DNA of 63,092 bases, filler included, from Atractiella rhizophila (taxonomy: Eukaryota): NCBI GenBank assembly GCA_021432655.1. It is 6 parts of 6 records of this genome, joined end to end, with 100 filler letters (N's around TTAATTAATTAA, not from the genome) between each part and the next. Parts side by side here need not be neighbours in the genome. Positions count along the whole stretch, not along the records: positions 26,455 to 39,560 come from MU271990.1; 5 more parts are not named here. One strand, written 5' to 3'. A program made the translations under genes and the position numbers. Shown here piece by piece: positions 5,501-61,253 of this stretch. The number at the start of each line of letters is the position of its first letter. Position 1 is the first letter of the stretch. Below the pieces are notes generated by a model that was not told the DNA's origin, ran no database searches, and was given only the letters and a program-made list of their open reading frames with translations.

Positions 5501-8500
5501 CTGTCACAACAGTTTTGAGCTCCTCCTCGAATGATAAAAGCCATTGCAGTGTTGGCCGAATTGCGTATGCAAGCAAAGGAAATTCGCTCGTCGCGAGACG
5601 GAGTCTCTGAACGGTGCAGAGGTGTATCGAGACTGACGATTGGAGCAGTTTAACTTCACCAGGCACCCATGTAATCCTCGGTAGCGAGCTCGAACAACTT
5701 CTCGCTTTCAAGCTTTTGAGGTGCTCCTTGATGTCGTCGATCGTCGGTCGGATGAGTTGTCGAAATTGTTGCGTGATCGTCTGATCTGGAAGCGAGTCGC
5801 ATGTGATTTCGACTAGGTGATTTAATTCCTGGAGGGCATCCTGAATGTGGCTGAATATAACGACATGTCTTTCTATTTTAGAGTCAGAATGAGTCCATCC
5901 TTCGTTGTTTTTTGCCATTTCTTGGAGGCGCAGTACAGCTTCCTCGATGATGGAGAACTTTGACACCAGGTTACACAAAGCGCCGTGCCCACGGTACATA
6001 ATCGAAACGCAGCTATCGATGTAACCAATTGCCCTTTCTAGATCGCTCTTGAGGATGTCACTATGGGTTGCAGCGATTGATGCATGAACTTCGGGGAGCA
6101 AATGGAGGATCCGAAAAAGGTAACGCAGATAAGGCCTAGCATCACCGTCAAAGGCTACAATAAAGCTTCAGTAGAAATTCGACACGACAGGCGTATTTCT
6201 CACCAGAGGTGTTTAATGGCGGCAAGGTAAACAGGTAATAGTCGTCGCGAACATTGCTTTGAGTTTCCGCAGTAGGTCGAAGCGGCAGCCCTGACAGTCT
6301 TAAGCTCTTTAATAGATCGCTCCAAGCTTTCCGCTTCAGGCGGAGTAGATTCTTCTTTGCGATAGTTCTATTACCTCCATTTGCTGTGACGGGTAGAGGA
6401 TGATCACGAAGCTCCTGAGTGGTGGTAATGACCATTGAAGAAAGTGTGTCAACGTCGTCCGCCCAGTTACTGGTGAGAGTGTGGGATAGCTTGTCGTTGA
6501 GAATGTTTTGAAGTTGATGCCATGTATTCCTCAGATTTCGGTGTCTCGAGTATCGCTCTGATGTGTCTTCATCGAGATCAAGCGACATTTCTGAGGATGG
6601 CGGCCGCATAGTCACGCTGAAGGGGGTCTGCGCTTCTTCTTCTGGTGTAAAGCTGAAAAGTTGATTGGATGGCGCCTGTAGTCCTCGTCTGTATTTGCGC
6701 ACCTGCCTGTAGAGCTGAGAATGGCTCTTTTTGGCGCTGTCTCGAACCGCATAGACATTGGTATCCTTCCAGCTCGCCAACAGGATAACATTCGATATTT
6801 CTGCTTGACAACTTTGTGTGACAGCGCTGACTTCAGTCTCTATACTGGGGGAGAACTGTTTGTAGTATGTCTCGACATTGCTAACGGCGTCAGAAAGTGC
6901 AGGCGAAACCCGAAATTCTGGTACGGAGCGAAATTGCGTCATCATAGCTGAAAAGGAAAGCAGAAATCGAAGTCGTCCTTCGTACTGCCCAATGTTGCTG
7001 TCGGCAATAAACGAACGCAACAGCGATATGGTCTCACGCAGGCGCTTTGTTGGCTCTACATCGCTTTCCATGGCGGGTGACATGATAGTGTAAAATCTGA
7101 AGAACCAGTCGCTGAGGTCTGCGTTGAAATTCTTCTCCTCTTTTGAAAGCAGCGCAGACCATGATTGCAATTCTAAACGCCTCCAAGACAACACAAGCTG
7201 GATCAGATCTGAACGAAAGTATTCCAAGGAGTGTGCCTTGTCTGCGTATTTTTCCCAGTCTTCTAAATCAAGCAGCAACTGCTCTAATTTCGTTAAGATG
7301 CGCATGATTGGAGTGTCGATATAAAGACGAAGAATGTCATCACAACGATCTCTGAGATGTTCGAGAACGACTTGCTCCGGAAACTCTGCCAAAAGAGATG
7401 ATAGGCGTTGGCGAAGTGGTCGAAGGCAAGCAATGGCGCGTGACGTTTCACGAATGTTACCTTCAGAGTAAAAATCAGGGGTTTCATCATTCAATCCATC
7501 CATTGCCCTCCTCCATTGATGCAATCTGGTGGTCTGATATGGTAGACTGAGATTATCCAAACTGTCGGCGAAAGTTACAGCTGAATTCTGGATCACGGTT
7601 TGCAAGATCGCGTCTCGACTGGCCTCTAAGATCCTCATTGCTTTTTGTGATTGGTGGCCAAGGAACAAGGCGCTATGGATTGTCCATATTTCAGACCACC
7701 AAATGCTTTTCCGAGGCGTAGGAAGTATTGGTTCATCTATGTCCGATTCATCATAAGCAGGGAAGAGGTCGTGGAACTCTTGTCCATCCACATCGTTCTC
7801 ACTGTCGAGATAGTCGTAAGTTTTCATTTTATACAAGCTGTCTTTCGATTGCTTCTCGTTTTCTTGGATGTCCTGTAGTCGCAACCATTCAGAATGCAAT
7901 ATTGTGTACGCTGATAAGATAGTGGATCTGTCGAGCACAATTGGCAAATTGCATTGGCGTCTGAGGCATAAACCGAGGCGGAAGAGATTCCATTCCATCA
8001 AAGGGAAGCCAGAAAGAGAGGGGAGATCGACATCCTCAATTGAAATTGCTACCGTGGGAAACGTGAGGATGTTTTCGACCAATTCTTGCACCTGAGCAGT
8101 ACTCCGTGATGGAGCGTTCCCGACAATCGACAATCCAAGCTGAAGGATGGATAAGCAGAAGAAAATTGGCCGGAGGATATCGTCAAAGTAACCATAAATT
8201 TGCGATAACTTTTGGGTAAAGAGCTGGACAGATGCATATAGGTTTCGACTAATTTCCGAAGAGTTGTCGTTCAATGCTGGAGGGCTAAGTGCATTGGAGA
8301 GATCAACATGCAGAACATGCTTCGAAAAACCGTGCAGATCCTGGAAGAGCGCGAATAGAAGGGCTGGTTGGGGGAGACGGGAGACTGGCGGAACCGGAAG
8401 ACTCGCCGCCTCTACCTTCAGAAGATCATTCCATCGCTCGAGGAGGGCAATCCTCGGAGTACTTTGTGCGGGGAAAACAACATTTGACTCGGCATCGACA

Positions 8501-11500
8501 TGGGTAGAGGTATCGATACCGGCAATTTCATCCGCCAGGAAAGATCCACGATGCAGAATTACAGCCACTGGATCCACAGGGAAGTTGGGAATGAGCAGGC
8601 GCCAGAAACTTCGCGCAAGCGCTACCATACTCTTGCCAAGCTCGGTTTCATACTCTCCTTGTTCCACTGCAGCGAGCAAGGCATAAGCCTGTGGCATCAA
8701 TGTCGAGCAAAATACTGTCCGATACTCCTCGTTTGCTGATGTCGAAGCTCGCTCCAGGATCTGACGACTAACAATCAATGTGGCTGTCAATGTCGATTGC
8801 GGATGTTGCTGCACGAGCTCTATCGAAGATTCCATGACAATGCGGATCTGCTAGCTGATTGGCATAAAGGCCGGACGAAACCAATGGAACTCACAGCATC
8901 AATGGAAGCAAAAAAAAGGCGGACAAGCTGAAGCCGTCTGGAGTGCTGCTGTAAGGAGTTTCGAAGTAATCGCTGTACATCCATCGCTCCCTGAGCTTCT
9001 TTCCGAACTTGGGAAAGATCTTGCAGAGAAGCATCGGGTCTTGTTTTCGTCAGAATACAAAGAAACGATGATCACTGCAACTCACTTCATTCCCACAACA
9101 GAAGCCAAAATCTGTGCCCGTAGAAGCAAATGTGGCTGCCACTCTCTTGTCTACTGAAGTATTAAGGGGATGCAAGCGACAACGACGGCGTGGACAAGGG
9201 CTCACACTGATGCCGATTCCCTGCAGGCCGTGACAAGCATGTTCGAAGGTCTGGGACAACATCTGGAGTGTGTCCGCTGCCTGCAAGGCTGGATTTGAAG
9301 TGTTGATGATAATGGAAAGTGGAATATGATTACTGCTTTTCAGTAGGTGCTTGAGAAATGGTACTACGCTTGTGCCCTACTTTCTTGTGAATAACATGTA
9401 GGAATGACCAAGGTGACGACCTACGTCGAGAATTGTCTGCATCTGAGTCTCTATTCCAACCACCTCTTCATAAAGACTTGAGTGATTGTAATCGGAGTTG
9501 ATGCATGAGGTGGCCGAGTTTAGGGCCTGTATTTTATCAGCGTGTCCCTGCCACCACGTTCAACTCACCTCAAATATGCCCACGGATCTTTCTTGTCTAC
9601 ATTCTGAAGAAAGGATCGTCGAGATTTCTGAAATGATGTTGCTCATATCTAATAAACTATCAGCCAACAATGGATACCTTGGAAAACCAACCTTCAAGCT
9701 TGGTGGTGTGAATCCTGGAAACGATCACATTTTTATTCAGCCCGTATAGCCTTTTATCACTAATGCTGAATCCTCTCCAGAACAGTTCGAACCCCTTGCC
9801 ACTTAAGCGATTCACAAGTGTGATCGCACGCCTAACCTTAGCCACGACTGGATCTGACCAGGGCTTCAGAGCCGATGGAAATGTCTGCACCAATTTCGTC
9901 AACCACTCCAGTGTTTCAGCCACTGCCGCATGGTCAAAAGTATGGCGCGCTGCCAGAGCAATCAAATGACGATTGTACGCTCCTAGAAAAAAGATCAAGT
10001 CTGTCACGTCCTGAAGCTAATATCAGTCAAAATGTCACGTAGGACATTGGCTCACAGTTTGAAGGGTCTCAAAATTAAACCCGCATAGCTCAATGAGCAG
10101 TGCTTGTAGGTCCATTTGAGCAATTGTGACCATCTGCACGTAATCCCCTCCAGAAGTATTTTTCCCATCAAAGGAGGAAGAGTCGGCAGAATGTCGACAA
10201 GATGCTAAATTGTAGATGGCGGCGGAATGTGCCGAAACGACGGTTTCCAGGTGTGCATCTGATATTTGCAGGAAGTGAAAGGGCAACGCAGCTTTGTCAA
10301 GAGGCTGTGCCAAAGTTATACGGACTCAACTTTAGAAATGAAGAGTAGCTTACACGGTAAGTGACGAAGTGGCGCCGCTGAGATAATGTCTCAGCAGTAC
10401 GCATGACGTTCGCATATAGCCCACAATCAACTGCTCGGGATAGAAGTTGACCCAATGACCTATCAGAGGACAAGTGACAGTCGAACCTCGCGGCAATCCC
10501 ATGATATGACGGAGGGATTTTAGCCAGTTTATTTTGCAAGGAAGCGCAATGCCACATAACTGAGGGACTAGGAGCGAGCGGAGAAAATAATCTCGTGAGC
10601 CAAGTCAAAGAAGGCTCGTATAAGAGGTTCCGGTATCCAGTATCATTTCCAAATCCCAACGGTGTCTCTGAAGTAACCAAGAATGTCTCAATACCTCGGT
10701 TCCTCATGGCGCGAGACAACTCTCCTTTGGATGGGTCAAGGCTGAGGAACATTCTGAAGTCCGGATGAGGGTTGATTGTTATTACTTCGCCTTCAACCGG
10801 TCCTCTTTCGTTCACTTGCAAGCGACCATTGATCTCGAAGACAGAGTTAAGACGGTCTAAAACAGCCTGGCTACAAAAGTTGGCGTTACGCAACAAAAGC
10901 CACTCTCCAGACAGCATTGACCTCACTAGGCTCCCGTCTCTCCAGACGAAGGAACCCTTTTTGATATCCAGGCTGAGGAGCTTCTGGCGAATGGCGGCTA
11001 ATTTGGAGGTATAGGTCGATTGGTCCTGTAAACACTTCTCTGTGGCGTGCAGGGTGTTTAGTGCGCACTCCCTATCCAATTTCGTTCCTTCGGCCTTGAA
11101 TAGAAGATAGTGGAGCTGAGGGATTACGTCCATAATATGTTCGCCACCAACACCGGAGTGCACGGCCTCCGAAACGGTGCAACTGAGCATCTCTATCGCC
11201 TGTCGAAATCGGATTTGCTTAGTATCTTGCTCAAAAGTCCCGAGGAGTTCCATGGTATCCTGGGAGCTACTCATGTCAAATTCCCGCAATCTGCTCCCTT
11301 TCAACGATGCTAACGTTCGAACTACACCCAAACGAATCTCTTCACATAAACTTTGGAGAATAATCAACCATCCACGATCAATGGCAGTCGCCAGACTCCG
11401 ATATTCTCCGTGGTATTCTGAAATGAGAATGGGGAAGGCAGACGGTGAGTGGCTCATGGGAAGCTCACGTCTAGGCATTAGATGCCCTGCGTCGAGCTCT

Positions 11501-13127
11501 AAAAATGTCTCGGAAATGAACAAGGTAGTGGTCGTTCCTATATCTTCCATCCCAAGAAGTTTTTCGAAAAGTTCGGAAGCAGCTGCGCGATCCTGACGTG
11601 TTCGAAATCGATGAACGTAAAGCGTTTGGAGCTCTTTTTTGGCAGCATCGAACACTGTGCTCGAATCTTCCTCAACAGATTGCAAAAGTTGGAGCCACCT
11701 TAACGTATCTCGCAGGTTGAATTCCCAAGGTGCGCCAAACTGCCCAAAGCTACGCCGAACCCGAGTTTCGATATCCAGTTGCGCATTAACTAAGGCCATC
11801 TTTTGGAGCACAGAGATGTCGATGCGAGGACATACCGTGTGAGCGATTGCTACCGTGTCATGTTCAGTAAGGGCCTGTAGGGTAATGCTCGTAAAGCGAT
11901 TGAGGTAAGATTTGGGAAGACCTTTTCGCCCTCCGCCCTGAACTAGAGGGTTTTGAGTAGCAAATATACGGAACTGAGGATGTTTTCTGAAGTTACGATC
12001 TAGTTCCGGGATGTAAACTTCCCCGCGATGATCCAAACAGGAATTGAGGCCTTCAAGTACTGTCTGAGGAGCAAGATTCATCTAATACGGAGAAAAATGG
12101 TTTGAGCCAATCTGATGTCGAAAAAAGTTCCAAACCTCATCCAACAAAACCCAGTTCCCATTTTTCATTGCCGTCAGGAAAGGAGCATCTTTCCACGAGA
12201 ACCCCCCACCTTCCGTGGGTAAATCACTTCCAAAGAGGTCCGAAAGGTCCGTCTGATCTGATAGGTTGATTCTGATGGCTTCATAACCGCAGGCTGCAGC
12301 TAGAGCAAGTACCAAACTGGTCTTTCCAACTCCTGGATCTCCTTCCAGCAAGACTGGCTTGGAAATCTGCAAAGCCCGAAGCAGCTTTAACGTGTTGGAT
12401 CGTGCGGTAGGTGCCACAAAGCTGAATTGGGAGACCAGGGTGTCGTCCCGCCCTTTGACAACGCGAAACGGGCCAACTTGAAAGTAATCGGATGAGGAGA
12501 CAACACTTGGCGTCGCCTCAATTTCGATATTGGATGAATCAACCATGGAACTAGCCTTTCGTATACAGGAGAGTGTTGCTTCATCACTGACAGAAGCTGG
12601 CAACGCATCCACGCAGATGAGCAAACAGCCATGCACGAACGAGAGTGGCAACCCTAAACTCGATTTCGTCGCCTTCATAAAATCAATCCATGCTAGAGCG
12701 TCACGCAGGCCGAATGCTTTCTGAGAAAACGCATATTCTGTTTCAAACCAGCGAAAGAAGGATAGAATAGCTGTGCTGTATGCAGAAATATCTTCATTGG
12801 AAGATCGCGCCTGCATCACTTCGAGAAAGTCTTCAGTGTCTGACATCGAAGGGACCCAAATCTCTGTAAATCGATTCCTGAGTGCGGGCGAAAGCTCTTT
12901 CTTACCATAATCACCACCGGGATTCATAGTTGCAAGGATATTAAATCCAGGTGATGCTACTACGTGGAGATGACTGAAGTCGTCGCCTCCCATCTCTGTT
13001 ACCGTCATGGATCGTGATGGCTCCAACACGCTGTTGAGACGTTCTAGTACAGAGTCGTCCGCTAAAGATATTTCGTCTAGCAGAAGAAGGTCGCCTTCCT
13101 TCATCGCCTGTACTAAAGGACCATCGT
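2520..13127 (-). CDS. MDN1: Midasin/Rea1 AAA-ATPase, 3' part (5' end cut by contig edge)
   Basis: AAA modules (LLDEISLADDSVLERLNSVLE, LATMNPGGDYGKKELSPALRNRF, GDPGVGKT, FATQNP..GGGRKGLPKSYLNRF), a long linker, an acidic D/E region, and a C-terminal MIDAS domain (LRLILEPT..LRGDYRTGKRLNMKK, AIDDSKSM, IISDG). Confidence 0.96.
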
Positions 13128-13227
13128 NNNNNNNNNNNNNNNNNNNNNNNNNNNNNNNNNNNNNNNNNNNNTTAATTAATTAANNNNNNNNNNNNNNNNN
13201 NNNNNNNNNNNNNNNNNNNNNNNNNNN
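13128..13227. other. Artificial contig linker N44-TTAATTAATTAA-N44
   Basis: Identical 100-bp spacer with stops in all six frames, also at 26355-26454, 39561-39660, 52729-52828 and 58837-58936. Confidence 0.98.
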
Positions 13228-26354: not shown

Positions 26355-26454
26355 NNNNNNNNNNNNNNNNNNNNNNNNNNNNNNNNNNNNNNNNNNNNTT
26401 AATTAATTAANNNNNNNNNNNNNNNNNNNNNNNNNNNNNNNNNNNNNNNNNNNN

Positions 26455-27387
26455 GCCTCCCTCCCCCGCACCGCCCGCGACGCACTTCCCTTCCCCGGCT
26501 TCTCCTTCACCTTCTCCCGTCTGCTGAACGTGACGCCGTACGAGGAGACGGGGTTCGGAGGCTACTTCAGCATGGGATTGATAAATACGACGCTGTATGA
26601 GGGAGCGATCGATTGGGTGGATATACCCGATAACTTGGAGAGTTATTGGGTCGTACCCCTGGAGAGGATGGCTATCAATGGGACTAATTTGACGGCGGTG
26701 AAGAGCACTAATGTCGCTATTCACACGGGAACCACACTCGTTGGTGGACCTGCAGCGGCTATTCAGGCCCTATACAGCCTCATTCCAGGTTGGTCGCTTT
26801 CTCCTACTCCACTCCTACTGGTTACTGGTACTTCTTGAGGATGTTTACTGAAATGGGATTGATGGATAGGGAGCGCGCCAGCGACGGGCGAATTCGAAGG
26901 CTACTACTCCTACCCCTGCAACACGACCGTACACATGTCCCTAACCTTCGGTTCTCGAACATACAACATCACCCCCGACGACTTCAACCTCGGCCCCTAC
27001 ACATCATCCGACGAGACCCGCTGTCTCGGCTCCTTCTTCACCCTCGACTTTGGAAAGTCAATCATCACCTGGGTCATCGGCGCCACGTTCCTCAAGAACG
27101 TATACAGCGTCTATCAGTACGACCCGCCCGCGGTGGGCTTTGCGCCGTTGGCGAGGAGCAACCTCACCAGCAACTTTACAATGTCCCTCCTCGCGGCTAA
27201 TCAGTCTAATGCTACGGGAACGCATGGGTCGGGACCGAAGGGGACGCAGGCAGAGGCGTCTCTTCCTCCGTATGAGCATTCGTGGGCTACGACGCTTAGG
27301 GTTGGTTGGGCGGGCGTGGGGGAGGTCGGGTGGAGAGAGGCGGTGATGGTAGGGTTGGGAGTGGCGGGTGCGGGCGTGCTATTATAG
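26455..27387 (+). CDS. Pepsin-like (A1) aspartic peptidase, C-terminal lobe with GPI-like tail; catalytic motif reads HTG
   Basis: YEGAIDW, SYWVVPLERMAING, VAIHTGTTLVGGP, YSYPC, WVIGATFLKNVYSVY..VGFA, hydrophobic C-terminus. 5' end lost at contig edge. Confidence 0.85.
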
Positions 27388-27857: not shown

Positions 27858-29396
27858 TTATTCTCCCGACTCCTTAACCCATGACGAATCATCGCCCTCG
27901 CCGATTGCGCACTCTTTCATCCTCCCCCTGGCAATCCAAATCTCCTCTTGATACCAGTCTCCAAAGAACAAGAGAACGTGTAACACCGCTCCACTCGTCT
28001 CATTCATCCGTCCAACTCCAGCCCGTACCAACCGCTGACCTTCAAAGAACCAGGGGATGAAGGAGAGCAAATCGGAATACTTTACCGCACAGTAAGCAAT
28101 GGATATCTGTTTGATCACTACGGCATGTTTGAGATTGCTGAAAAACTGGCCACAAACGAGGTTTGAAGTTTCCTCACCACCGTCGAGGTTGAGGTAGGTC
28201 AGTTGTTTGAGCAGTGATAAGTTGAGCGGTCTAGAGTCGAGAGGTTTAAAGTCGAGAGGTCTGGCTGGGATGGTGGTATTTCCATCATGCAAGACAGGGG
28301 TAAGCTTGATTGTGAGATATTGTAGATGAGCAGGCAGAGGGGAGCCTGATATCGAGGTTGGGAGGGGACTCGGAGTGGTGAGGCTTGGTTCAAGGAGAGT
28401 GTGTGGGAGGGAGAGCCGTACGAAAGGTGGGTATGTGAAGAGTGTTAGGGATATGGAGCCAGCAGGTAATCGACGACTGTCTAATGCCATGAAGGAGGGA
28501 GAGAAGGAGGAATAGTCTTCTGCTGCCTGAATGGAGAGCTGTACAATCCTCCCCCTCATCCCCTGCATGAAGTCCTCTACCTCCTGCTTCCTCCATTGTC
28601 TTGAACCCATATGTCCAAAGGTTACAACCTCCAGCTTTGTCAAGCCCCCAATTGCATTTAACACCATTGTAGCCTCCTCTTCACTCCAAAATGCATCCAG
28701 CCATACATTCGTAACATTCGGCGAACCCAAGATGACCACTTCTACCATCTTAACATCCATACATTGTCGAAACTGGAGTTGCTTCCACAAACGTCCAGAA
28801 TCAGCATACAGTTTTAAACGTGTATGCTTCTTCAACGCAGAATGAGGCTCTTCCCAATAGGCGACTGAAACAGCCCTCCAGTGCTTGCAAATGCGGGAGA
28901 GGATGTTCCAATTTGCGTCCCATGTTGCCAAGAGATAACTGAAAATGAAGGAGAGAAGCTCAGGAGGCAAGTGTGAGATAAAGCATCTCCTATCCTTTGC
29001 GATAGGGTGAAGCGAGAGTTGGATAATGCTCAGAGCTTGATGGGAGGATAGGAGGGATAACGATTCATTATCGTTATCCATGATAGGGACAAAATGATTG
29101 TTGGCCACGGAGTATGAGGCAACGGGGACCAAGATTGCCTGCGACCGATTAGGGAGGAGAGGAAATGTGCAAGAAAACACACTCCTTGTGGGTTCATGGT
29201 CTGAAGTCTCTTCACCCTTCCCAAATTGGACTGTGACATTTTCAAGATCAAACCTAACACACAGATCTGCTCTGCAATCTTGTTCGGCCCTGTTTCCGAA
29301 TGAATGCAGGAGATTTGGCAGAGAGAAATGGGATAATTTCGAGGACACATTTGTGGGAGAGTGATAAGCATATCTAAGAGGTAAGACAAATGTGAT
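27858..29396 (-). CDS. F-box plus degenerate LRR-like protein (possibly the last exons of the NLR gene)
   Basis: F-box FISHLPPELLSFIFSYL..LSRICKHWRAVS (~28870-28985), followed by LxxLxL repeats (HLQYLTIKL, LKQLTYLNLDG). Confidence 0.8.
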   Translation of the reverse strand: MTFVLPLRYAYHSPTNVSSKLSHFSLPNLLHSFGNRAEQDCRADLCVRFDLENVTVQFGKGEETSDHEPTRSVFSCTFPLLPNRSQAILVPVASYSVANNHFVPIMDNDNESLSLLSSHQALSIIQLSLHPIAKDRRCFISHLPPELLSFIFSYLLATWDANWNILSRICKHWRAVSVAYWEEPHSALKKHTRLKLYADSGRLWKQLQFRQCMDVKMVEVVILGSPNVTNVWLDAFWSEEEATMVLNAIGGLTKLEVVTFGHMGSRQWRKQEVEDFMQGMRGRIVQLSIQAAEDYSSFSPSFMALDSRRLPAGSISLTLFTYPPFVRLSLPHTLLEPSLTTPSPLPTSISGSPLPAHLQYLTIKLTPVLHDGNTTIPARPLDFKPLDSRPLNLSLLKQLTYLNLDGGEETSNLVCGQFFSNLKHAVVIKQISIAYCAVKYSDLLSFIPWFFEGQRLVRAGVGRMNETSGAVLHVLLFFGDWYQEEIWIARGRMKECAIGEGDDSSWVKESGE

Positions 29397-29503
29397 CTGG
29401 AGGGAGTGAATTGACCGAGGCAGACGAAATAGGAAAGAAGGAAGGATGGACAAGTGGAGGGAAGCAGCGTAGGATGTTGGGGTGATGAGATGGGCTCGTG
29501 CAG

Positions 29504-32500
29504 TTAAGTCTGGTTCCTGAGGCCCCATAGATCTATGTTAGATAAGAGAGGAAGAGATGAAGAAAGGTGCATCATTACACAACCGATTGTCATCCTTGAA
29601 GTAGAAGCACCACAACTTTTGACACAACACTGGGCGACTTGTTCAATTTCGCTGCTCGCATTGGCATATTTTGACAGTTCGATGAGGAGTTCAGCCATAT
29701 TCTCTCTGGCAATAACTTCGTAATACATGCTGGCCGTCTTGCTCAAATTGATTGCTTCCTCGTAAACCTCGATCACATTCATGAACTGATGGTTCTGAGC
29801 ATAAACAGAACCAATGTTGGTAAGGCAGTCGAGTTGACTCTCAAAGGCTCCCAATGCTAAATAGAGTCCCTTTGCCTCCTCAAATCGATTCATTGCTACC
29901 TCTTTGCATCCACGAACCTGCTCAATCTTCCCTATGGTGTGAATGCAATGGGCAAGGCCACACCAATCTTCTTGTGTTCGACACAGCTGCTCTGCCTCAT
30001 TGAAATATTTCAGTGCTTGCTCACTCCTCCCGTGCTGCCTCTCAATCTTCCCCATGCTGTGAATGCAGTGGGCCTGACCTTGATGATCTCCTATCACTAG
30101 ATATAGCTGCTTTGCCTTCTGTAATTGCTTTAAGGCTTCCCTAAACCGCCCTTGTCGTTGTTCAATCTCCCCAATGCCACGGATGCAGTTAGCAACACCT
30201 CCCTGATCTCTCACCAACATGTACAAGCTCTTTGCCCGCTCAAACTGTTTCAGTGCTTCCTCATTCTGCCCACCAAGCTGCTCTATACCCCCTTTGCAGC
30301 GAATACAGTTAGCAGTCATTTGCTGATCTTCCAACAGCAGATACAACTGCTCCGCCTCCTCAAACTTTTTCAGTGCCTCCTCATTCCACCCTTGATGTTG
30401 CCTGATCTCCCCCATGCTGCGAATGCAGTGGGCCTCACCATGCCGATTGTCCACCAGCAGATACAGGTAGCTCGCTTCCTCAAAATGTTTCAGTGCTTTC
30501 TTATTCTGCCCCTGAAGCTGCTCGATCTCTGCCATGCCACGAATGCAGTGGGCCTCCCCATGCCGATCTTCCACCAGCAAATACCGCTCCCTCGCTTCCT
30601 CAAAATGTTTCAGTGCTTTCTTATTCTGCCCTTGAAGTTGCTCAATGGTCCCCATACAGCGAATGCAGTTAGCAGCCATTTGCCGATCTTCGAACACGTC
30701 ATATAATTGCTTTGCCTCCTCGAACCATTTCAGTGCTTTCTCATTATGCCCACAAAACTGCTCAATCTCACCCATGCTGAGAATGCAGTAGGCCTGGTTG
30801 TGCAGATCATCCATGAGTAGATACAGCTCCATTGCTTTCTCGTACCATTTCAATGCCTTCTCATTTCGCCCACAACGCTGCTCGATCTCTGCCATGCTGC
30901 AAATGCAGTGGGCCTGGTTGTGTAGATCTTCCACCAGTAGATACAGCTCCATTGCTTTCTCATACCAGTTCAGTGCCTTCTCATTTTGCCCTCGATAATG
31001 CTCAGTGTCCCCCATGCTGTGCATGCAGTGGGCTTTGCTCTGAGGGTCTTCTCCCGGTAGATACAGCTCCTTCACCTTTGGGAATTGTATCACTGCCTGT
31101 CGTGTGTTTCCACTCTGTCGAAAAGCTGACCCAAGAGCCCTCGTCAATTCGGCTATGATTAGAGATGAATGAAACACTGGAGATGTTGTGTAGGACAGAG
31201 CCTGCTGGACCAATGCTACTGAAAGGAGGCTTTCACAATATGTAAACTGCCAATTTTCTATCACGAAATTGAGCGCAATCGTGGGATCCTGAAGATATCT
31301 GAAAGCAGCCATGAGGACATGTTCGAGGTTCAAATAATCGTTGCGAAATGACAGCAGTCCTATCTGCGCAACCCCATCCCCGAACTGTCGGACATTTTCA
31401 CGCGCCTTATGACAGAGTGCTTCAGTTAAGGGCTCAAGCGATAAGGCGGTGACTTTGAAAGGAGGAACAGGACCCAAGACTAAACGGTTGATATATTCAC
31501 GAATTGGGGTCAGCATGCGCAATCGTGAGGTATGTGTAAGAGTATCATCAACATTTTCAGCCAGTCCGACTTTTAAGATTGAGGTGACGAGCACAGCAGA
31601 ATCTTCTGAATGGGGAAGGCTGGAGTTATTGCCAAAGGCGATAATGTCGTCAGCCAGAAGACCATCAGGGGTCCAAGATAGAAGGGCAAGGATAAAAGCA
31701 CTGTGGTCCTCATTCTTCCTGAGCAGAGGTGAATTGAATGAAAAGGATATTGAAGTCGCAAGGGAGTGTGTATCTACACTATCTTCGGCCCAGAGCATGC
31801 TGGTCCTCTTTGCCTCCCATTCGCCCACCAAAACCGCTAGGGTCTTAGTCGATTCATTATTGGCACGAAGAATGAAGAGCTTAACAGACAAGGCATGGTG
31901 ATCCAGCTTGGCGACAATGTCCTCGACTAGCTGGTCGTCATCCCGGCGATATCCTTCTCCGCCGACGTACATAGATTCAAACATACCAAGAGCGCCGCGG
32001 TCGCTCAAGCCTCCAATCGCCAGTTCTTGAAATCTCACACCTTTCGAGTACACACGCTCAGCCTGATGGCCACGATGTACTACAACGAGAATAGACCCAG
32101 AAGGGCATTGTCTGGAAAAGAAAGCCTGGAAGAATGGCTGTAGGTTATTCTTGTCAGACCGAGCGGGGGTCTCAAAATTATCGAGGATAAGGAGACACTT
32201 GTGAGCATTGAAATATTTTGCGACAGCAGTAAGCTCATCTTCGCTGGGCGGAGGAGCTAATCCGAATACCTCCTTACAAAGGTTGGTCGAGAGAGAGGAG
32301 AACTCGGAGAAAGCGTCACATCGCGCCCAAAAGCGAAAGTCTTCTTCCTTACCATCCGTGGCGGTCCTGAATGCATTCTTGATTTTGTCTGCATGTAGGA
32401 CCTCCAGTGCAACCGTAGATTTGCCGTTCCCTGCGCCACCGATGATAGCGAGGTGCCTCTGGTCAGTAAGGATGCATTCTATGGCTTTCTCGACTTCCTC

Positions 32501-33661
32501 TTCTCTTCCGTAACAAGCCGCTCGAGGAGGTAAAGCGATCTTCGTGTAAACTGCGACACGATCTTTATGTTCTACAGAGTAGAATGTTAGCATACAATTA
32601 CCAATGATGAAGAATATACCTTTCGCCAGAGATAGAGCAGCACTCAACGCTTCATGTTTCATCGCTTCCATGTAAGCCTTGGTACCGTCTACGGCATCAT
32701 TCTTTCGCCCCCACTCCTGCCACTTGAAACATCCAAACCTATCGACCGAGAAACGATGGTAACAATGCCCTGTCCCCCGCTCTTGCATCATCACCTTCAC
32801 CTCGTTCGAAACCCTTGAGCAATCCATGACTATCGCCTCCAATGTTCGCTCAACATTATCTCGAGTGTGGCCCAACTTGATGGCAGGTCTGGTAACGTCA
32901 CAGCCTAGAGACACAAGGCAGGCGATCTCACAACTGGGTCCCCAGATTCGCTTCGCTTCTTCAAAAGCTATTGCTGTAGGGTTGCCACGACCTGGACTAA
33001 AGTACATAGTTTCATCCACGCTGATAGGATGAAAGAAGGAATGATGGGCAGCAGTCGCTCTTGCAGCTTCCCAGACCATACAAGTAGAAGCAGGGGAGTC
33101 CTGAGAGGATAAAGCACCAGGAATATCGTAGGTGCGCATCTCCGCGGAAACGGCGACGTTGGTCTCGTAGGTAGAAACTACAAAAGTTTTACACCTGTCA
33201 TGCCAGGAGGCATCTTTCATAGATAGCGATTTCGCAGAATCGTGAGAAGTGTTCATATGCTGCTGGATGATAGCGATGAAAGTTTCTTCAAACTTTTCCG
33301 CCGAGTAAGCGTACTCGCCTCTGGAGATCGAGTCATTTTCTAGAGAAACTTTCTGTGTGATCTCTTCACATGCCGTAATGCACTGGCGAACGGTCATTCC
33401 CAGCCTCCCGAGCATGAGCGCGATCCACCCGCCTGTTGAAGTTCCGCAGATGAGATCAAAAATATCGCAGGGACGAGGCTCTTCGTCATTAGGCACATCG
33501 AGAAGATGTGCAACGTGCATCATGATTGTTTCCAGCATGTACGCCTGAGAGAAGGAGCGCATGTCCCCACTATCGATGGAAAGGATCCGCAATCCCTTGG
33601 GATTCACTTTCTTGATGGTCTCAGGGACCTTGAAGATCTTGACAGAATGATCTGCAGACAT
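29504..33661 (-). CDS. Fungal NLR: patatin-like domain, NB-ARC/STAND ATPase, TPR repeats
   Basis: Patatin LRILSID..FDLICGTSTGG..WEAARAT; Walker A GGAGNGKST (~32412-32440); Walker B LLILDNFET; LDHHAL at the GxP position; RMLTPIREY; 40-aa TPR-like repeats. In-frame 48-nt intron at 32619-32572. Confidence 0.92.
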   Translation of the reverse strand: MSADHSVKIFKVPETIKKVNPKGLRILSIDSGDMRSFSQAYMLETIMMHVAHLLDVPNDEEPRPCDIFDLICGTSTGGWIALMLGRLGMTVRQCITACEEITQKVSLENDSISRGEYAYSAEKFEETFIAIIQQHMNTSHDSAKSLSMKDASWHDRCKTFVVSTYETNVAVSAEMRTYDIPGALSSQDSPASTCMVWEAARATAAHHSFFHPISVDETMYFSPGRGNPTAIAFEEAKRIWGPSCEIACLVSLGCDVTRPAIKLGHTRDNVERTLEAIVMDCSRVSNEVKVMMQERGTGHCYHRFSVDRFGCFKWQEWGRKNDAVDGTKAYMEAMKHEALSAALSLAKGIFFIIGNCMLTFYSVEHKDRVAVYTKIALPPRAACYGREEEVEKAIECILTDQRHLAIIGGAGNGKSTVALEVLHADKIKNAFRTATDGKEEDFRFWARCDAFSEFSSLSTNLCKEVFGLAPPPSEDELTAVAKYFNAHKCLLILDNFETPARSDKNNLQPFFQAFFSRQCPSGSILVVVHRGHQAERVYSKGVRFQELAIGGLSDRGALGMFESMYVGGEGYRRDDDQLVEDIVAKLDHHALSVKLFILRANNESTKTLAVLVGEWEAKRTSMLWAEDSVDTHSLATSISFSFNSPLLRKNEDHSAFILALLSWTPDGLLADDIIAFGNNSSLPHSEDSAVLVTSILKVGLAENVDDTLTHTSRLRMLTPIREYINRLVLGPVPPFKVTALSLEPLTEALCHKARENVRQFGDGVAQIGLLSFRNDYLNLEHVLMAAFRYLQDPTIALNFVIENWQFTYCESLLSVALVQQALSYTTSPVFHSSLIIAELTRALGSAFRQSGNTRQAVIQFPKVKELYLPGEDPQSKAHCMHSMGDTEHYRGQNEKALNWYEKAMELYLLVEDLHNQAHCICSMAEIEQRCGRNEKALKWYEKAMELYLLMDDLHNQAYCILSMGEIEQFCGHNEKALKWFEEAKQLYDVFEDRQMAANCIRCMGTIEQLQGQNKKALKHFEEARERYLLVEDRHGEAHCIRGMAEIEQLQGQNKKALKHFEEASYLYLLVDNRHGEAHCIRSMGEIRQHQGWNEEALKKFEEAEQLYLLLEDQQMTANCIRCKGGIEQLGGQNEEALKQFERAKSLYMLVRDQGGVANCIRGIGEIEQRQGRFREALKQLQKAKQLYLVIGDHQGQAHCIHSMGKIERQHGRSEQALKYFNEAEQLCRTQEDWCGLAHCIHTIGKIEQVRGCKEVAMNRFEEAKGLYLALGAFESQLDCLTNIGSVYAQNHQFMNVIEVYEEAINLSKTASMYYEVIARENMAELLIELSKYANASSEIEQVAQCCVKSCGASTSRMTIGCVMMHLSSSLPLLSNIDLWGLRNQT
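29830..31040 (-). repeat. Array of ~10 conserved 120-bp TPR-coding units
   Basis: 120-bp period visible in the DNA (gaatgcagtgggcc at 30061, 30421, 30541). Protein unit AHCIxSMGEIEQxxGxNEKALKxFEEAxxLYLLxED. Confidence 0.92.
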
Positions 33662-34450
33662 ATCGGCGGCAGTAAAGGGTTAGATTGCAAGGCGATCGTT
33701 GACATCCAGGGTCGGAAGCGTCAATAGTGACAAAAATTTGAAGGAAGAAGAAAAATGCGTGAGTTCGAATGGGTCCTAGCACCAATTTCATCAGCATCCA
33801 TGGTTTGCAGGTAATCTTCAAAAGCATAGCATGTTGGCGTGTTCATCAATCAAACCGTTTTGTCGTCCAATTATTTCCCATCTGCGTATTTCATGCATAC
33901 CACAACTAATATTCTCCACAAAGAGACGTCGAGGCCATTTGGAATCCATTCCTCCTCAACGCGTACGTTCACTGTGACAGATGAAACTTGAGATCGCGAA
34001 CAGACTGCTCCGCTTCGACCTCTATAAAGAAGTTCAACGGTAGTCAGGCGTTTATTAAGATCGCTCCCACTTGCATCCCTTTCCGCCATAAAAGGAGAAT
34101 ACTGACAGAGGAACTACTTTCCGTGCTCGCCAACTGAAATATACTCTCCGAATCACTTGAATATTTGAGATGACGGTTTTCCTTAACAAACAAAACTGTC
34201 GTCGTCGATTGTTGAAGCTAGTTTGCTTCGCGTAGCGTGAGCACCTCAAACGTTCGCGGTCGAAGGGTGAATTTGGAACTCTGATATGAGTCATGTTCTT
34301 CACCATGACTCCTTGGCAATTTTGCAACAGTGGTATCCAGCTATTGTATCCAGGGCTATTCCTATCTCATCTCTATCTCTGATATTTGGACGCGAAACAA
34401 ATGTTTTCGTAAACATTATAATACACGTCTTATATTTTGTCGAAAGCGCA

Positions 34451-37400
34451 ATGAAGCGTCTCTCCAGCTTCCTCCACGCGTCGACCAGCGCCATCCACAG
34501 TAGCACATCAACGGCAATGTATACCTATGGAACGTTCCATTCCTCCTCCCTCGCTTCCTTACATTCCTCACCAGTTCCGTCATCCAACACCAGCCTCGCT
34601 CCAACGCCGACCTCCCTCCCCAGTCAGGTATCTGCTCCTCCCGTTTCTTCGCTGGGCCACATGGCCGCCATTGGTAGCAGTAGAAGAGGAAGAGGCGGAC
34701 GGCGTACTAGTAGGATGGTCAGGGGTGGATTCGTTGGGAGGATTACCGGAGAACGAAGTAGAAGTGGGATTGGGAGAAGACAGGAAAACGAAGATGAAAA
34801 GGAAAATGAAAATAAAATCGGAGATGGGAGTGCAATTGGAGAAGGAGGAAAGCTTGGAAGCGTACGACAAGACATCCAACACCTCATCCACCGCATCATG
34901 GGCGACCTGCGCGATCTTCGGCAGATAGAGAAACAGCTTCGATCCGAGGCAAGGGCTATGAGGTCGTTCTTGAGGCTTGCGGTTCATGCTGTGGAGCGCG
35001 GGCGTGAGGAAGGTCGTATCGAACGTAGTAAAGAAAAGGCGGCGCTGGAGGAGGAGGGAAGTGGAGTGAAGGAGGTAAAGTGGAGAGCTGAAGGCCTTTC
35101 GTCGTATCGCGCTTTTGGTACGGGTATCAATTCGCTCGCTCCTTCATCGCAAGCACCATCAACATCACCCTCAGCATCAGCATCAACATCGGTACCACCT
35201 CCCACGCAATATCAAAACAGACAATTGGCGGAAGGAGAAGACGCGGAAGAAATAAGAGAAAGCGACGACTATAAAGAGTACGAAGAAGCGGTGCTCAAGA
35301 AAATAGCCAAACTGAGGAAGCAGATAGTGGTGTTGGAGGGGAAGATAGTGGCGCCGGAGAAGGACAGGAGGATACAGAGGCTGAGGGGTCGGATCTTCAC
35401 GCTGCAGAGCAGGTTGAAGCCGGAGTCTTGGAGGAGTAGGAAAGCGCTGCGGGAGAAGAGAATGTTTGTCCTCCTTTCTTTCTCACTTTCTCTCTCCTCT
35501 TCAAACTGAGAGAATTTAACTCCACATGTTGGTTGGTTGATTAGGTCCCTATTCAAGGCTGTTCAAACAGGTACGGTATTGATGGACAATGCGAGTACGA
35601 GCCATAGCCATGAAGACGACGCTTCAACTTCCCTTGCTGAGGCCGTACGGATGTCCGAACAACAGTCGTCTACAGACCGCTTCAACGCGCCCAAAACTTC
35701 CATAGCCGACTTCCACTTGGGCACTGAGGCGACCCTGCATCCCTCCTACCTAGCCACCCCCTCCACCTCTTCGGAAATTGGGCACCAATCAGGCGTGGCG
35801 CAACAACAGCAAGGAGAGGGTTATCCCATGGCTGCGAGCTTCTTGTTTGAGCTGTCGAAGCAGATGCTGAGTGTGAAGGGAGTGGACGGAGAGACGGAGA
35901 CGGGATCGCATCCGAGGGCAGGGAAGCAGAAGCGGGAACGCAATGGTAGTGCTCTCGCAAGTTCTATATCAGAGGACCCAGCATCTTCGTCTCTCCCGCC
36001 GCTAGCTCCAGGGATGGAATTTCAAAAGGCCACTATATCCCGAACGAACGGCAATAGCACCAACAAGAGGCTGGAGCCACTCTCGCTCGAACCCCTTCTT
36101 CCCCATCCCAACTTCCCCACCCTCCCTCGCCTCAAGCATGCCCTCGAGCGCTGCCTCACCAATCCCGGCTTGCACATGCTCGTCGACCCGAGGACTGGTG
36201 TGAAGAACTTTGATATCCCGGTAGAGATACCGCCGCTCGAGACGTCGATTGGGACGTCATTGGATCCTTCACCAAACCATCTTGCGACAAGAAACTGCTG
36301 CAGCTCCTCGACCTCGTCCCGGTCGGCTGTCCGTCAGAACGGGAAGCTGGAGCGGGAGCAGGAGCAGACTCGCAATCTAAAGAGCACACGCACCAGGAAG
36401 CAGGGCCGATGTTCGTCTCGTCGACGAGCCAGGTCGGAGGACCTCTCGAACAGATCTTCATATCACTCAGTAGGGCCGGACCGAACTATTCCATGTTGAA
36501 ACATGCCTCGTTTAGGGAATCGAAGACGCCGTTTGGGAGTGGAGCGTTGAAGCCGGCGGCGGTGGAGTTGGTGTGGATCAAATCTGGCGGAGAGGGAGAG
36601 GGTGGAGGGAGGTACGCTGTGATGCGGCGAAGTGGGACACGGAGAGGGATGCGGATGCTATGCCGGGTGTTCATTGGTTCAATATGCTCTCTAAATTTGT
36701 CAGTTTCCTTTCTTCGATCAGTCTTCGTAGGTCTCAAATCTAGGGTCTTTTAGGGCACCCTAGGTGAAGCTCTCTTGACTTCAGAGGGACAAATTCGATG
36801 ATTATCTGCTCACCCGCCCGAAGGAGAAGCAACCAGAGAAGCTGGAACATGTATACCACTATTCTAGAGTGCGCTCATTCTCCCTCCTCTTCTTCTCTTG
36901 GGCAATCGCAGACTGATAAAATTGACGACAGGTGGACGGCTCATTGTTCGCTCACAGCTCGATAGTTGGAATCCGAACTTGCCCAAGGCCGCTTTCGACG
37001 TTAAAACGCGGGCTGTGATGCCTTTGCGAATAGACCCAATGAACTACCAGGTTCGTCCTTTATCTTCATCCCTCTTTTCCCTTCTCTCTGATCCGTTGCG
37101 ACGATATAGACCGGAATGTATTACCGCCTGGCGACGCGCGAGGGCGAGCTTGAATCATTTGAGCGAGAATACTTTGATCTCATCCGGAACGCCTTCCTCA
37201 AATACTCCTTTCAAGCCCCGTCTTGGGAATATGGATGGCATCTTTTGTGCGCATCATAATGGAAAACGGTGGTTTGGGTTTCAGTATATACCTCTCGAGG
37301 ATATGGACGCTGCTACCTGTGGGAGCGTGCAGCAGGCTGAGCAGGCTTTTGGACTCTGTACTGCGCTGTTGGAGAGGGTGTTGGTGGAGGCGACGGCGAT

Positions 37401-39560: not shown

Positions 39561-39660
39561 NNNNNNNNNNNNNNNNNNNNNNNNNNNNNNNNNNNNNNNN
39601 NNNNTTAATTAATTAANNNNNNNNNNNNNNNNNNNNNNNNNNNNNNNNNNNNNNNNNNNN

Positions 39661-40734: not shown

Positions 40735-40849
40735 NNNNNNNNNNNNNNNNNNNNNNNNNNNNNNNNNNNNNNNNNNNNNNNNNNNNNNNNNNNNNNNNNN
40801 NNNNNNNNNNNNNNNNNNNNNNNNNNNNNNNNNNTGTCCAAACAGAAGG

Positions 40850-51151: not shown

Positions 51152-52829
51152 CCGTCGTGCTGTGATAGCTGACTTCGATTTTCAATTGCTTGATCGTTCC
51201 TACAATTCGTTCTTTTAAGCTGTAAAGCCCAGATACTCAACATACAACATTGCGAATAACCTACTCTTTTCAGTTTAACCAGTTCTTGTACCTCAAAGGC
51301 ACCAATATTTCTTCTCTAAATAGTAACTCGTGGGCTCTGATTGATGTTATGCAGGTCAAAAACATCGTTTAATTTTTCTTGTCCGATTTAGGTTCCGAAA
51401 GACTTCAACCTTTGTCTGCCCGCTAACCTGCACACTCAGTCGCCGCGACAAATCTTTCCATTCCATTCAGGGTTCCAGTGTATAAGCATGTGCAACAGGT
51501 GGACAAGCATTGACTTTAATGGCTAAATTGGAAATGTCATGGAAGCATTGCGCCGCAAGTGCAACGTGAACCAGTGCGTTACCTGACCTTACACTTCCTG
51601 GCTTCTGCTTGTCATCCAACTTCGATGAACAGCTTTAATATATGAACAGGATGTCAGTGTCGCTGTGTTGCAATGAACACATATCTTTATCTGACGATGG
51701 TGACTTAGCTAGTCAAAAACAATGATTTCACCCCTGCAACAGATTGATACATGAATGTTTTCTTGCAAACACAGTACCCTGTGCATCAACGATGTAAAAT
51801 GCAGTCACTTGAATTATCCTTCAAGCGTTGAATATCCTAGCTCGATATTGCAAATTCGTCTTGGATTCATGGGTGAGATGCTGTGATAATGGAGTATCAT
51901 CTTGAGTATCATCTTATTGGATTCCTGCTCTTTAAGCAAGAATGGTGTCTGTCTCCATTGTTAGACTTCGACACCATGTTATGCGTTGATATTTGACAAA
52001 TAGCAAAATCTTCACCTAGCGTTCCTAGCATTCTGTAGCACAAACAAGATCTGTGGACAAATTTCCATCAGTCGTGAAGATATGATGGAAATAGAACATC
52101 AAAAGGAAGTTTGTGGGAGAAGATGATCACTCCCAGAGTAAGTGTTAGAGGATTCTGCGAGGGCCAATATCTGCAGCGATGTGGTTCGCAAAAAACCCGC
52201 GTTGCGACTCAAAAGTGCCTTCAATTTGCAGAGTGACCAACGGATGTGATCTATGATCTATTGTAGTAATGGGCTCGAATGTCTATCAGCCGCTCAGGTC
52301 CGTCATACTATACTCTGGGTCGTATCCCATCTCGTGGTTTAACGGTGAGAGTCGAGTTGCTTCCATGTACCAGCAGGACTGCCCGATGTGCACTTCATCT
52401 CCTGGTTCCCGGACGCGGAGAGGTGAGGACCAAGCGACTCCCCCGAGCACCCCACCATGTTGTAGCAAGGGAATGTATAGTGATGACTGATGCATTACGA
52501 TGGAAGTATGAATAGAGGTACAAGAATTGCGCTTAGCTTGTCTTCCACCTGTCCTTCTCGTTCTGAGTCTTCTTTCTGAGTACGGTATCCCCTTTCGGAG
52601 TCTGTAGTATCCGTCAGTACGTTACAAAGAGTTAGTCCGCGTTAGCAAGCCTTTCCTTCACCACCTGCTGGAAACGAGTTGGGAGTGCGGTTGCCATTCC
52701 TGGCTTCGAACGCAGATCCCCGCTTTCGNNNNNNNNNNNNNNNNNNNNNNNNNNNNNNNNNNNNNNNNNNNNTTAATTAATTAANNNNNNNNNNNNNNNN
52801 NNNNNNNNNNNNNNNNNNNNNNNNNNNNC

Positions 52830-58836: not shown

Positions 58837-58936
58837 NNNNNNNNNNNNNNNNNNNNNNNNNNNNNNNNNNNNNNNNNNNNTTAATTAATTAANNNNNNNN
58901 NNNNNNNNNNNNNNNNNNNNNNNNNNNNNNNNNNNN

Positions 58937-60214: not shown

Positions 60215-61253
60215 GAGTGACTCGGTCTCCGCTACCTTATACCGATATACGGACAGTGTCTCGTACGGTACTCACGTCGTTGTCCTCATCATAACTCGCG
60301 AAGTTCCGANNNNNNNNNNNNNNNNNNNNNNNNNNNNNNNNNNNNNNNNNNNNNNNNNNNNNNNNNNNNNNNNNNNNNNNNNNNNNNNNNNNNNNNNNNN
60401 NNNNNNNNNNNNNNNNNNNNNNNNNNNNNNNNNNNNNNNNNNNNNNNNNNNNNNNNNNNNNNNNNNNNNNNNNNNNNNNNNNNNNNNNNNNNNNNNNNNN
60501 NNNNNNNNNNNNNNNNNNNNNNNNNNNNNNNNNNNNNNNNNNNNNNNNNNNNNNNNNNNNNNNNNNNNNNNNNNNNNNNNNNNNNNNNNNNNNNNNNNNN
60601 NNNNNNNNNNNNNNNNNNNNNNNNNNNNNNNNNNNNNNNNNNNNNNNNNNNNNNNNNNNNNNNNNNNNNNNNNNNNNNNNNNNNNNNNNNNNNNNNNNNN
60701 NNNNNNNNNNNNNNNNNNNNNNNNNNNNNNNNNNNNNNNNNNNNNNNNNNNNNNNNNNNNNNNNNNNNNNNNNNNNNNNNNNNNNNNNNNNNNNNNNNNN
60801 NNNNNNNNNNNNNNNNNNNNNNNNNNNNNNNNNNNNNNNNNNNNNNNNNNNNNNNNNNNNNNNNNNNNNNNNNNNNNNNNNNNNNNNNNNNNNNNNNNNN
60901 NNNNNNNNNNNNNNNNNNNNNNNNNNNNNNNNNNNNNNNNNNNNNNNNNNNNNNNNNNNNNNNNNNNNNNNNNNNNNNNNNNNNNNNNNNNNNNNNNNNN
61001 NNNNNNNNNNNNNNNNNNNNNNNNNNNNNNNNNNNNNNNNNNNNNNNNNNNNNNNNNNNNNNNNNNNNNNNNNNNNNNNNNNNNNNNNNNNNNNNNNNNN
61101 NNNNNNNNNNNNNNNNNNNNNNNNNNNNNNNNNNNNNNNNNNNNTCTTGAGATGGTTGGAGTAAGTCCAGTGAGTTTCGTGTGGGGAATAGCATGGTTGA
61201 TTGAAGCTGAGGGAGATCTGTTGCGAATGTGGACGACCGCTGAGGCGATAGAT

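Follow-up and report, generated by a model that had tools for sequence, protein, structure and literature searches.

This analysis concerns a locus of Atractiella rhizophila at 33661–27858 on the minus strand of a 63,092-nt stretch of DNA (assembly GCA_021432655.1; the whole stretch, six joined parts, is called the window), within the part taken from MU271990.1. There a gene for a NOD-like receptor (NLR) with patatin, NACHT and tetratricopeptide repeat (TPR) regions is overlapped at its end by an open reading frame (ORF) for an F-box/leucine-rich repeat (LRR) protein, here called the module, and a single candidate intron of 62 nt would join the two in frame. The chances that a fusion transcript through this intron is real, with retention of the intron giving an NLR of 1,369 aa, are judged to be evenly balanced. 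The two ORFs, their domains, the intron motif, the compatibility of the frames and the homology of the module family up to the acceptor were observed directly.

Candidate intron between the receptor and module frames

The two ORFs lie on the same strand with no intergenic space and overlap by 25 nt, counted from the ATG at 29528 through to 29504, where the NLR stop codon ends, just as the first-pass annotation of this DNA had described. The candidate phase-0 intron (29578–29517, minus strand, GTAATG..CTAAC..CAG) has its donor GTAATG at 29578, the branch sequence CTAAC at 29541–29537, a pyrimidine tract and a CAG ending at 29517, with the branch site 21 nt from the acceptor. Both the ATG at 29528 and a shorter, 46-nt version of the intron are contained in it. 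When the 62 nt are removed, the NLR frame ends with ..STSRMTIGC and the F-box frame opens with EPDLTARAHLITP.., which is where the homology to the other members of the module family starts. The spliced coding sequence, composed of exons 33661–32620, 32571–29579 and 29516–27861, includes altogether 5,694 nt and 1,897 codons without an internal stop, in place of the product of about 1,870 aa that had been predicted at first.

Contigs of two sequencing runs, X1 and X2, were placed on 9.5 kb of the window. Neither run is on record as RNA, and X2 was treated as RNA-like because its contigs skip GT..AG introns, five in all: 26789–26869 and 35464–35544 on the plus strand, and 32572–32619, 34022–34106 and 33776–34106 in the NLR gene. 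Since X2 contigs skip NLR introns, the NLR is expressed and spliced. The length of the candidate intron falls within the 48–85 nt of four of these five confirmed introns, the fifth being 331 nt long. Searched for on both strands of the 63 kb, the strict pattern GTAA[GT][TG]..CTAAC..YAG has a single occurrence, the candidate intron itself, while a loose intron pattern occurs 20 times per strand (0.32 per kb per strand). At the loose rate, for about 45 nt of target sequence and one of three length classes, the chance expectation of a frame-restoring intron at the start of the homology is about 0.005; for an intron of the strict consensus it is well under 1%, which counts against regarding the two ORFs as separate genes.

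The first-pass annotation had joined the frames differently, by an intron at 29578–29533, a bridging exon of 27 codons and further introns at 29451–29397 and 29180–29139. The first of these strings is indeed present (GTAATG..CTAAC..TAG, 46 nt) and is followed by the codons that were quoted, but as a joining splice it fails, as it enters the third frame, where there is no homologue and a stop follows after 52 codons. The intron at 29451–29397 would cut out the SILPSF..LP..IH.L motif, which is kept in 26 module copies of 25 proteins, and the one at 29180–29139 would likewise cut out conserved residues, in a stretch through which a 586-nt X2 contig is colinear (28807–29386). An in-frame fusion therefore survives as a possibility through the single 62-nt intron and the precedent of a paralogue described below, but the model of several introns does not.

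The 46-nt splice could also be used in its own right. The intron would then be real and end at the first AG (29533), giving an NLR of 1,397 aa with an out-of-frame tail of 52 residues and a stop near 29376, and the F-box protein would be made separately or not at all. This reading shares donor and branch site with the 62-nt intron, and in scanning models of splicing the first AG past the branch site is the default acceptor. However, that AG is located only 5 nt past the branch A, compared with 15–25 nt from branch A to acceptor in three confirmed nearby introns, and an AG so near the branch site is generally skipped in splicing; the next AG after 29533 is the frame-restoring one of the 62-nt intron. 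The tail also lacks a homologue and overlaps conserved coding sequence of another frame. Use of the 46-nt splice is accordingly thought improbable.

If the 62-nt intron is used, the locus would form one minus-strand transcription unit, in which the NLR gene lacks a separate terminator region. Splicing by the spliceosome would take out the in-frame stop of the NLR, and in phase 0 the NLR frame would pass from its final codon (..TIGC) directly to the codon with which conservation of the module begins (EPDL..), so that the 1,897-aa product would carry patatin, NACHT and TPR regions, the N-terminal domain of the module family, the F-box and the LRR region. With the intron retained, the stop TAA at 29506–29504 (minus strand) would be read and the 1,369-aa NLR without the module would result, both forms thus coming from one locus. 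That the splice sites are used we infer, and the same applies to every statement on function. The F-box would bring Skp1 and Cullin to the receptor, most likely for control of the turnover of the receptor itself or of a partner bound to it, that is, as a version in cis of the action of CPR1 on SNC1 and RPS2. Alternatively, a large and fast-evolving F-box family might have supplied the module as an integrated decoy or sensor.

In the F-box frame, homology to the paralogues starts at about 29519–29513, approximately 150 codons upstream of ATG 29081, and leaves no room for an intergenic region, a promoter or a 3' untranslated region (UTR) of the NLR. This bears on the most serious competing explanation, according to which two same-strand genes overlap by 25 nt, one for a 1,369-aa NLR ending at the TAA at 29504 and the other for a 556-aa family member starting from ATG 29528. 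The F-box gene would then have its promoter within the final codons of the NLR, the resemblance to an intron would be due to chance or to a CT-rich promoter element, and any conservation of the NLR and F-box genes as neighbours would point to a functional pair instead of a fusion. Overlapping same-strand coding regions without space for UTRs are unusual in fungi. The start codon in question (29526–29528, minus strand, in the F-box frame) is rightly placed and in frame, but it has T at position −3. It is also only 26 residues ahead of SILPSF, a leader ten residues shorter than that of any family start listed: the stand-alone members start 36–47 residues before this motif, and the frame of the window is closed at −29 by the TAA at 29540–29538, four codons before the ATG. 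Both NLR-linked copies, that of the window and that of the paralogue, lack the stand-alone leader. Two separate genes are considered a real, if lesser, possibility.

The paralogue is KAH8930767.1 (P0005), an A. rhizophila 'TPR-like protein' of 1,169 aa, whose gene model has TPR repeats and, immediately after them, the F-box/LRR module. Compared with the window, its TPR part is 51% identical and its module 79–85% identical, and at the junction its alignment with the spliced product of the window needs a gap of two residues, P0005 being the shorter. As a gene model, P0005 would be the sole precedent for the fused arrangement.

Several observations weigh against the fusion. The model of P0005 has its start within the TPRs and leaves out the F-box proper, and is possibly a patched prediction; moreover, four other family members with foreign sequence attached (P0016, P0021, P0025 and P0039), which as true fusions would speak for the fused reading, may equally well be annotation merges, and this would weaken P0005 as support for a fused gene. 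The junction is also the exact point at which identity between the window and P0005 changes, from about 50% over the TPR tail before it to about 85% over the module after it. This jump favours an independent unit and suggests that the module is duplicated, moved or converted by itself, which would be equally compatible with an exon and with a separate gene. The module family is mostly stand-alone, with proteins of 549–600 aa, and ATG 29528, just upstream of the start of the homology, gives a product of 556 aa, within that range. Fungal core promoters have CT boxes, and the pyrimidine tract of the candidate intron could equally be one of these. Word searches and exact look-ups found no fused protein from this locus in the protein collection, and of the 10 annotated A. 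rhizophila proteins retrieved in a search for shorter fragments across the junction, none spans it. Finally, among the 10 contig joints listed for the 9.5 kb there was neither a joint at 29579/29516 nor the transcript junction at 29579/29532 expected by the first-pass annotation; this is weak evidence, as contigs show presence and not absence, and 207 contig pieces, among them those over 29387–29669, are outside those listed, though the bin of the site has cover.

The module could further be translated without any fusion, either from a bicistronic or read-through transcript or by means of an internal promoter and the ATG at 29593 (which encodes the M of ..TSRM in the frame of the NLR), in combination with the 62-nt intron. 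In mushroom-forming basidiomycetes, polycistronic transcripts are reported to be widespread (PMC4503453), and ATG 29593 has A at position −3. On the other hand, the NLR tail resembles the regions upstream of stand-alone starts no better than shuffled sequences do, and no supporting evidence of an internal start was found. Translation in either of these ways is held to have a low probability.

In its widest form, the fusion would mean a four-part receptor, with a patatin phospholipase, NACHT, a TPR sensor and an entire F-box/LRR ubiquitin-ligase adaptor, produced by one 62-nt splice, with the junction kept at two or more loci; the at least 59 diverged F-box/LRR genes would then be a second hypervariable recognition repertoire plugged into NLR signalling, and the locus would hold the first fungal NLR wired directly to SCF ubiquitination. 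This wider claim is put forward tentatively and is rather unlikely to hold in full. A receptor with an E3-ligase adaptor of its own would link non-self sensing and ubiquitination within one molecule, and would allow ideas on NLR self-regulation or decoy integration to be tested directly in fungi. If the genes are separate, the locus would represent a tight NLR/F-box gene pair, possibly conserved at a second locus, and would be of modest interest.

Patatin–NACHT–TPR receptor gene

The NLR ORF extends on the minus strand over 33679–29504, with its first ATG at 33661. Coding exon 1 (32620–33661) starts from this ATG and includes the patatin-like phospholipase domain at approximately 33583–33002. 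It is followed by an in-frame intron of 48 nt (32572–32619, GTATAT..CTAAC..TAG), the joint 32571>32620 being present in one X2 contig (depth 53.6) and one X1 contig. Coding exon 2 (29579–32571) covers NACHT at about 32452–31991, a linker, the TPR region at about 31141–29582 and the non-repeat tail.

Pfam searches supported the patatin, TPR and F-box content given in the first-pass annotation with scores above cut-off. The Patatin match (PF01734) covers residues 33–226 of the ORF as read, with 41.5 bits against a cut-off of 27.7 and an E-value of 2.1e-10, and the translation contains the nucleophile-elbow serine motif GTSTG in this domain. TPR_12 was matched by five stretches of residues from about 847 to 1366 (E 1.3e-48). 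At the nucleotide level the TPR region repeats in tandem every 120 nt with 74–76% matches, and it comprises approximately 12 TPR units. The label given earlier to the central domain had to be changed: NACHT passes its cut-off (residues 410–563, 31.4 bits against 26.7), and when the nucleotide-binding region was scanned alone, NACHT scored 34.5 bits but NB-ARC only 14.8 against a cut-off of 23.5, and this in the P-loop region only. The P-loop of the NACHT domain reads GGAGNGKST. Judged by its translation, the upstream gene is a patatin–NACHT–TPR NLR, with a central NTPase, a domain of an N-terminal effector class and C-terminal repeats.

Two alternative introns were found in the 5' UTR of the NLR, sharing one donor at 34106. 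The shorter, of 85 nt (34022–34106, minus strand, GTCAGT..TAG), is based on the X2 contig joint 34021>34107, and the longer, of 331 nt with its acceptor at 33776 (33776–34106, minus strand), on the X2 contig joint 33774>34106. These introns add no coding sequence, because an in-frame TAA is present upstream of ATG 33661. The 5' exon of the NLR is near or overlaps the start of a divergent plus-strand ORF at 34271. In addition, one X2 contig of depth 4.8, with 30 letters on its short side, skips 845 nt with GT..AG ends between NACHT and the TPRs (31126–31970, minus strand). The skipped length is not a multiple of three, and the contig could come from a paralogue, be a chimera or reflect a rare isoform with a broken frame.

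F-box/LRR module and its family

The second minus-strand ORF is open over 29537–27858. Its first part is a family-specific N-terminal domain (28992–29516, minus strand; ..AHLITP.., SILPSF..) of approximately 150–175 aa, beta-rich and conserved in the paralogues. Neither a Pfam search nor a search of the ESM Atlas with this domain gave a usable match, the former finding none at all, and most of it has low pLDDT in the AlphaFold model. The F-box motif LPPELLSFIF...W follows at 28866–28979 (minus strand), with an F-box-like match (PF12937) of 26.4 bits against a cut-off of 24.3 (E 5.7e-6). The C-terminal domain (27861–28799, minus strand), which includes the motif LDGGEETSNLV and is followed by the stop codon at 27860–27858, is leucine-rich-repeat-like according to the AlphaFold2 (AF2) model and Foldseek.

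The AF2 model of the module has a mean pLDDT of 75.2, with residues 180–540 mostly above 85 and forming alternating strands and helices. The best Foldseek matches were TIR1, FBXL17, COI1, FBXL2, MAX2, Dia2 and Skp2, and altogether 11 matches had E ≤ 0.001, with TM-scores of 0.2–0.42 and sequence identities of 10–14%. As far as the predicted fold goes, the label F-box/LRR module is right for the downstream ORF.

A standard member of the family is a stand-alone protein of 549–600 aa with a short leader, the N-terminal domain (..ALVHLITP.., SILPSFLSRLPPSIHTLRITFVL), the F-box and the C-terminal region, and nine full-length stand-alone models are of this kind. A HMMER pass over 1.84 billion representatives produced 59 matches with E ≤ 0.001, including 40 with E ≤ 1e-10 and 23 with E ≤ 1e-30. 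All 14 matches of the word-based protein searches, as well as all 11 proteins looked up by cluster, came from Atractiella rhizophila, so that the family is so far confined to this species, 13 of the 59 representatives having been named. A metagenome scan with the family alignment found three loci, and in these only the F-box motif, with 38–40% identity over about 40–50 residues. The SILPSF..LP..IH.L motif served as a regular-expression anchor and recovered the 26 module copies in 25 database proteins. The locus thus also documents a large, species-restricted F-box/LRR family whose N-terminal domain is without a Pfam match.

The locus of the window is itself absent from the protein collection, since the module had no match there at 90% identity and exact look-ups of the 556-aa, 407-aa and unspliced 1,385-aa products all failed. 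Within the 63-kb window, no second copy of the NLR or of the module was found.

Some members of the family carry foreign N-terminal parts, namely RhoGAP in P0039 and unknown sequence in P0021 and P0025, and P0016 has two modules. In the annotation of A. rhizophila, these four and P0050 are given with RhoGAP, Q-rich or unknown sequence, or a tandem second module. Such members could be real fusions or merges made in annotation: the module may be prone to capture by upstream genes, or gene callers may tend to merge it with them. An origin of the NLR tail from the 5' leader of stand-alone family genes (KSC.. compared with KSA..) was also tried and rejected, as between 242 and 1,926 of 2,000 shuffles reached the observed scores.

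Many contigs of both runs match the window over 28155–28187 only, a short stretch that encodes the LDGGEETSNLV motif, and diverge on either side of it. This pattern agrees with the expression of many F-box/LRR paralogues in the organisms sampled. In near-identical contigs, six of the 10 differences in the module and five of the 11 in the NLR were synonymous, among the 40 of 190 differences listed; on these 40, both halves look constrained, a point in favour of the fusion.

Known receptors and the surroundings of the locus

The closest known counterpart of the receptor part is PLP-1 of Neurospora crassa, which senses the SNARE protein SEC-9 and in which cell death requires the patatin domain and the ligand is sensed by the C-terminal repeats (PMC10197012). 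The NLR of the window shares with PLP-1 a patatin-like phospholipase at the N-terminus, a STAND NTPase in the centre and TPR repeats at the C-terminus. Unlike in PLP-1, the NTPase scores as NACHT and not as NB-ARC, and the host is a Pucciniomycotina-type fungus; PLP-1 also ends at its repeats. A survey from 2014 reports patatin as almost invariably combined with NB-ARC and no NLRs from Pucciniomycotina (PMC4986451). The locus thus documents a patatin NLR in a Pucciniomycotina-type lineage, where that early survey had none.

Fungal NLRs have been described as three-part proteins, and their extra domains have been catalogued only recently. The statement of the first-pass annotation that no architecture of this kind was known proved too strong, as an F-box is listed among NLR domains both in plants and in Sordariales. 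In plants, the integrated domains listed include F-box in Malus and Solanum (PMC4759884). The locus resembles such plant receptors in that a canonical NLR would be extended by a domain with stand-alone relatives, here 59 representatives and nine full-length models. It differs from them in kingdom, NTPase and repeats, and also in that a whole protein of about 550 aa with N-terminal domain, F-box and LRR would be appended instead of one small domain. For Sordariales, PMC12258605 gives 8% of the NLRs as carrying extra domains, mostly C-terminal and discussed as sensors or decoys. F-box and F-box_5 appear once each there, in supplement files 5 and 12 (12 of the 17 files covered; PMC12258605). Both are short proteins that combine an F-box match with a fragment of NACHT or NB-ARC, have no repeats and are left undiscussed in the text of the paper, and the form patatin–NACHT–TPR–F-box–LRR is not listed in the same 12 files (PMC12258605). 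In the main text of three fungal NLR surveys, the term 'F-box' was not found. If real, the fusion would be a variant of the NLRs with integrated domains and not a new kind of receptor.

The module part, with an F-box followed by an LRR solenoid, is similar to Dia2 of S. cerevisiae and to Skp2, FBXL2, FBXL17, TIR1 and COI1. It differs from Dia2 and the FBXL adaptors by its family-specific N-terminal domain, and by analogy with them a link to Skp1 is predicted. Dia2 carries a TPR domain ahead of its F-box. A functional model for an F-box-coupled NLR is provided by the F-box protein CPR1/CPR30, which controls the protein level of the Arabidopsis NLRs SNC1 and RPS2 via the proteasome (PMC6032283). 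CPR1 acts in trans, however, from a separate gene, and has no homology to the module.

Elsewhere in the window, a giant gene resembling midasin (Rea1/Mdn1) is located at 2520–13179 on the minus strand, with long ORFs matching Midasin AAA-lid, AAA_5 and VWA. A copia-type retrotransposon ORF at 55656–57737 on the plus strand includes gag, Pol beta-barrel and gag-pre-integrase matches and lies beside the N-rich end of the window, where the GC content is low. The other genes of the window are ordinary, among them an O-fucosyltransferase-like ORF and a fragment of an aspartic protease at 26.4–27.4 kb. Runs of N are present at 40735–40834 (100 N) and at 60310–61144 (835 N). Paired runs of 44 N, 12 bases apart, occur at 13128–13227, 26355–26454, 39561–39660, 52729–52828 and 58837–58936 and look like artefacts of masking or scaffolding and not like biology.

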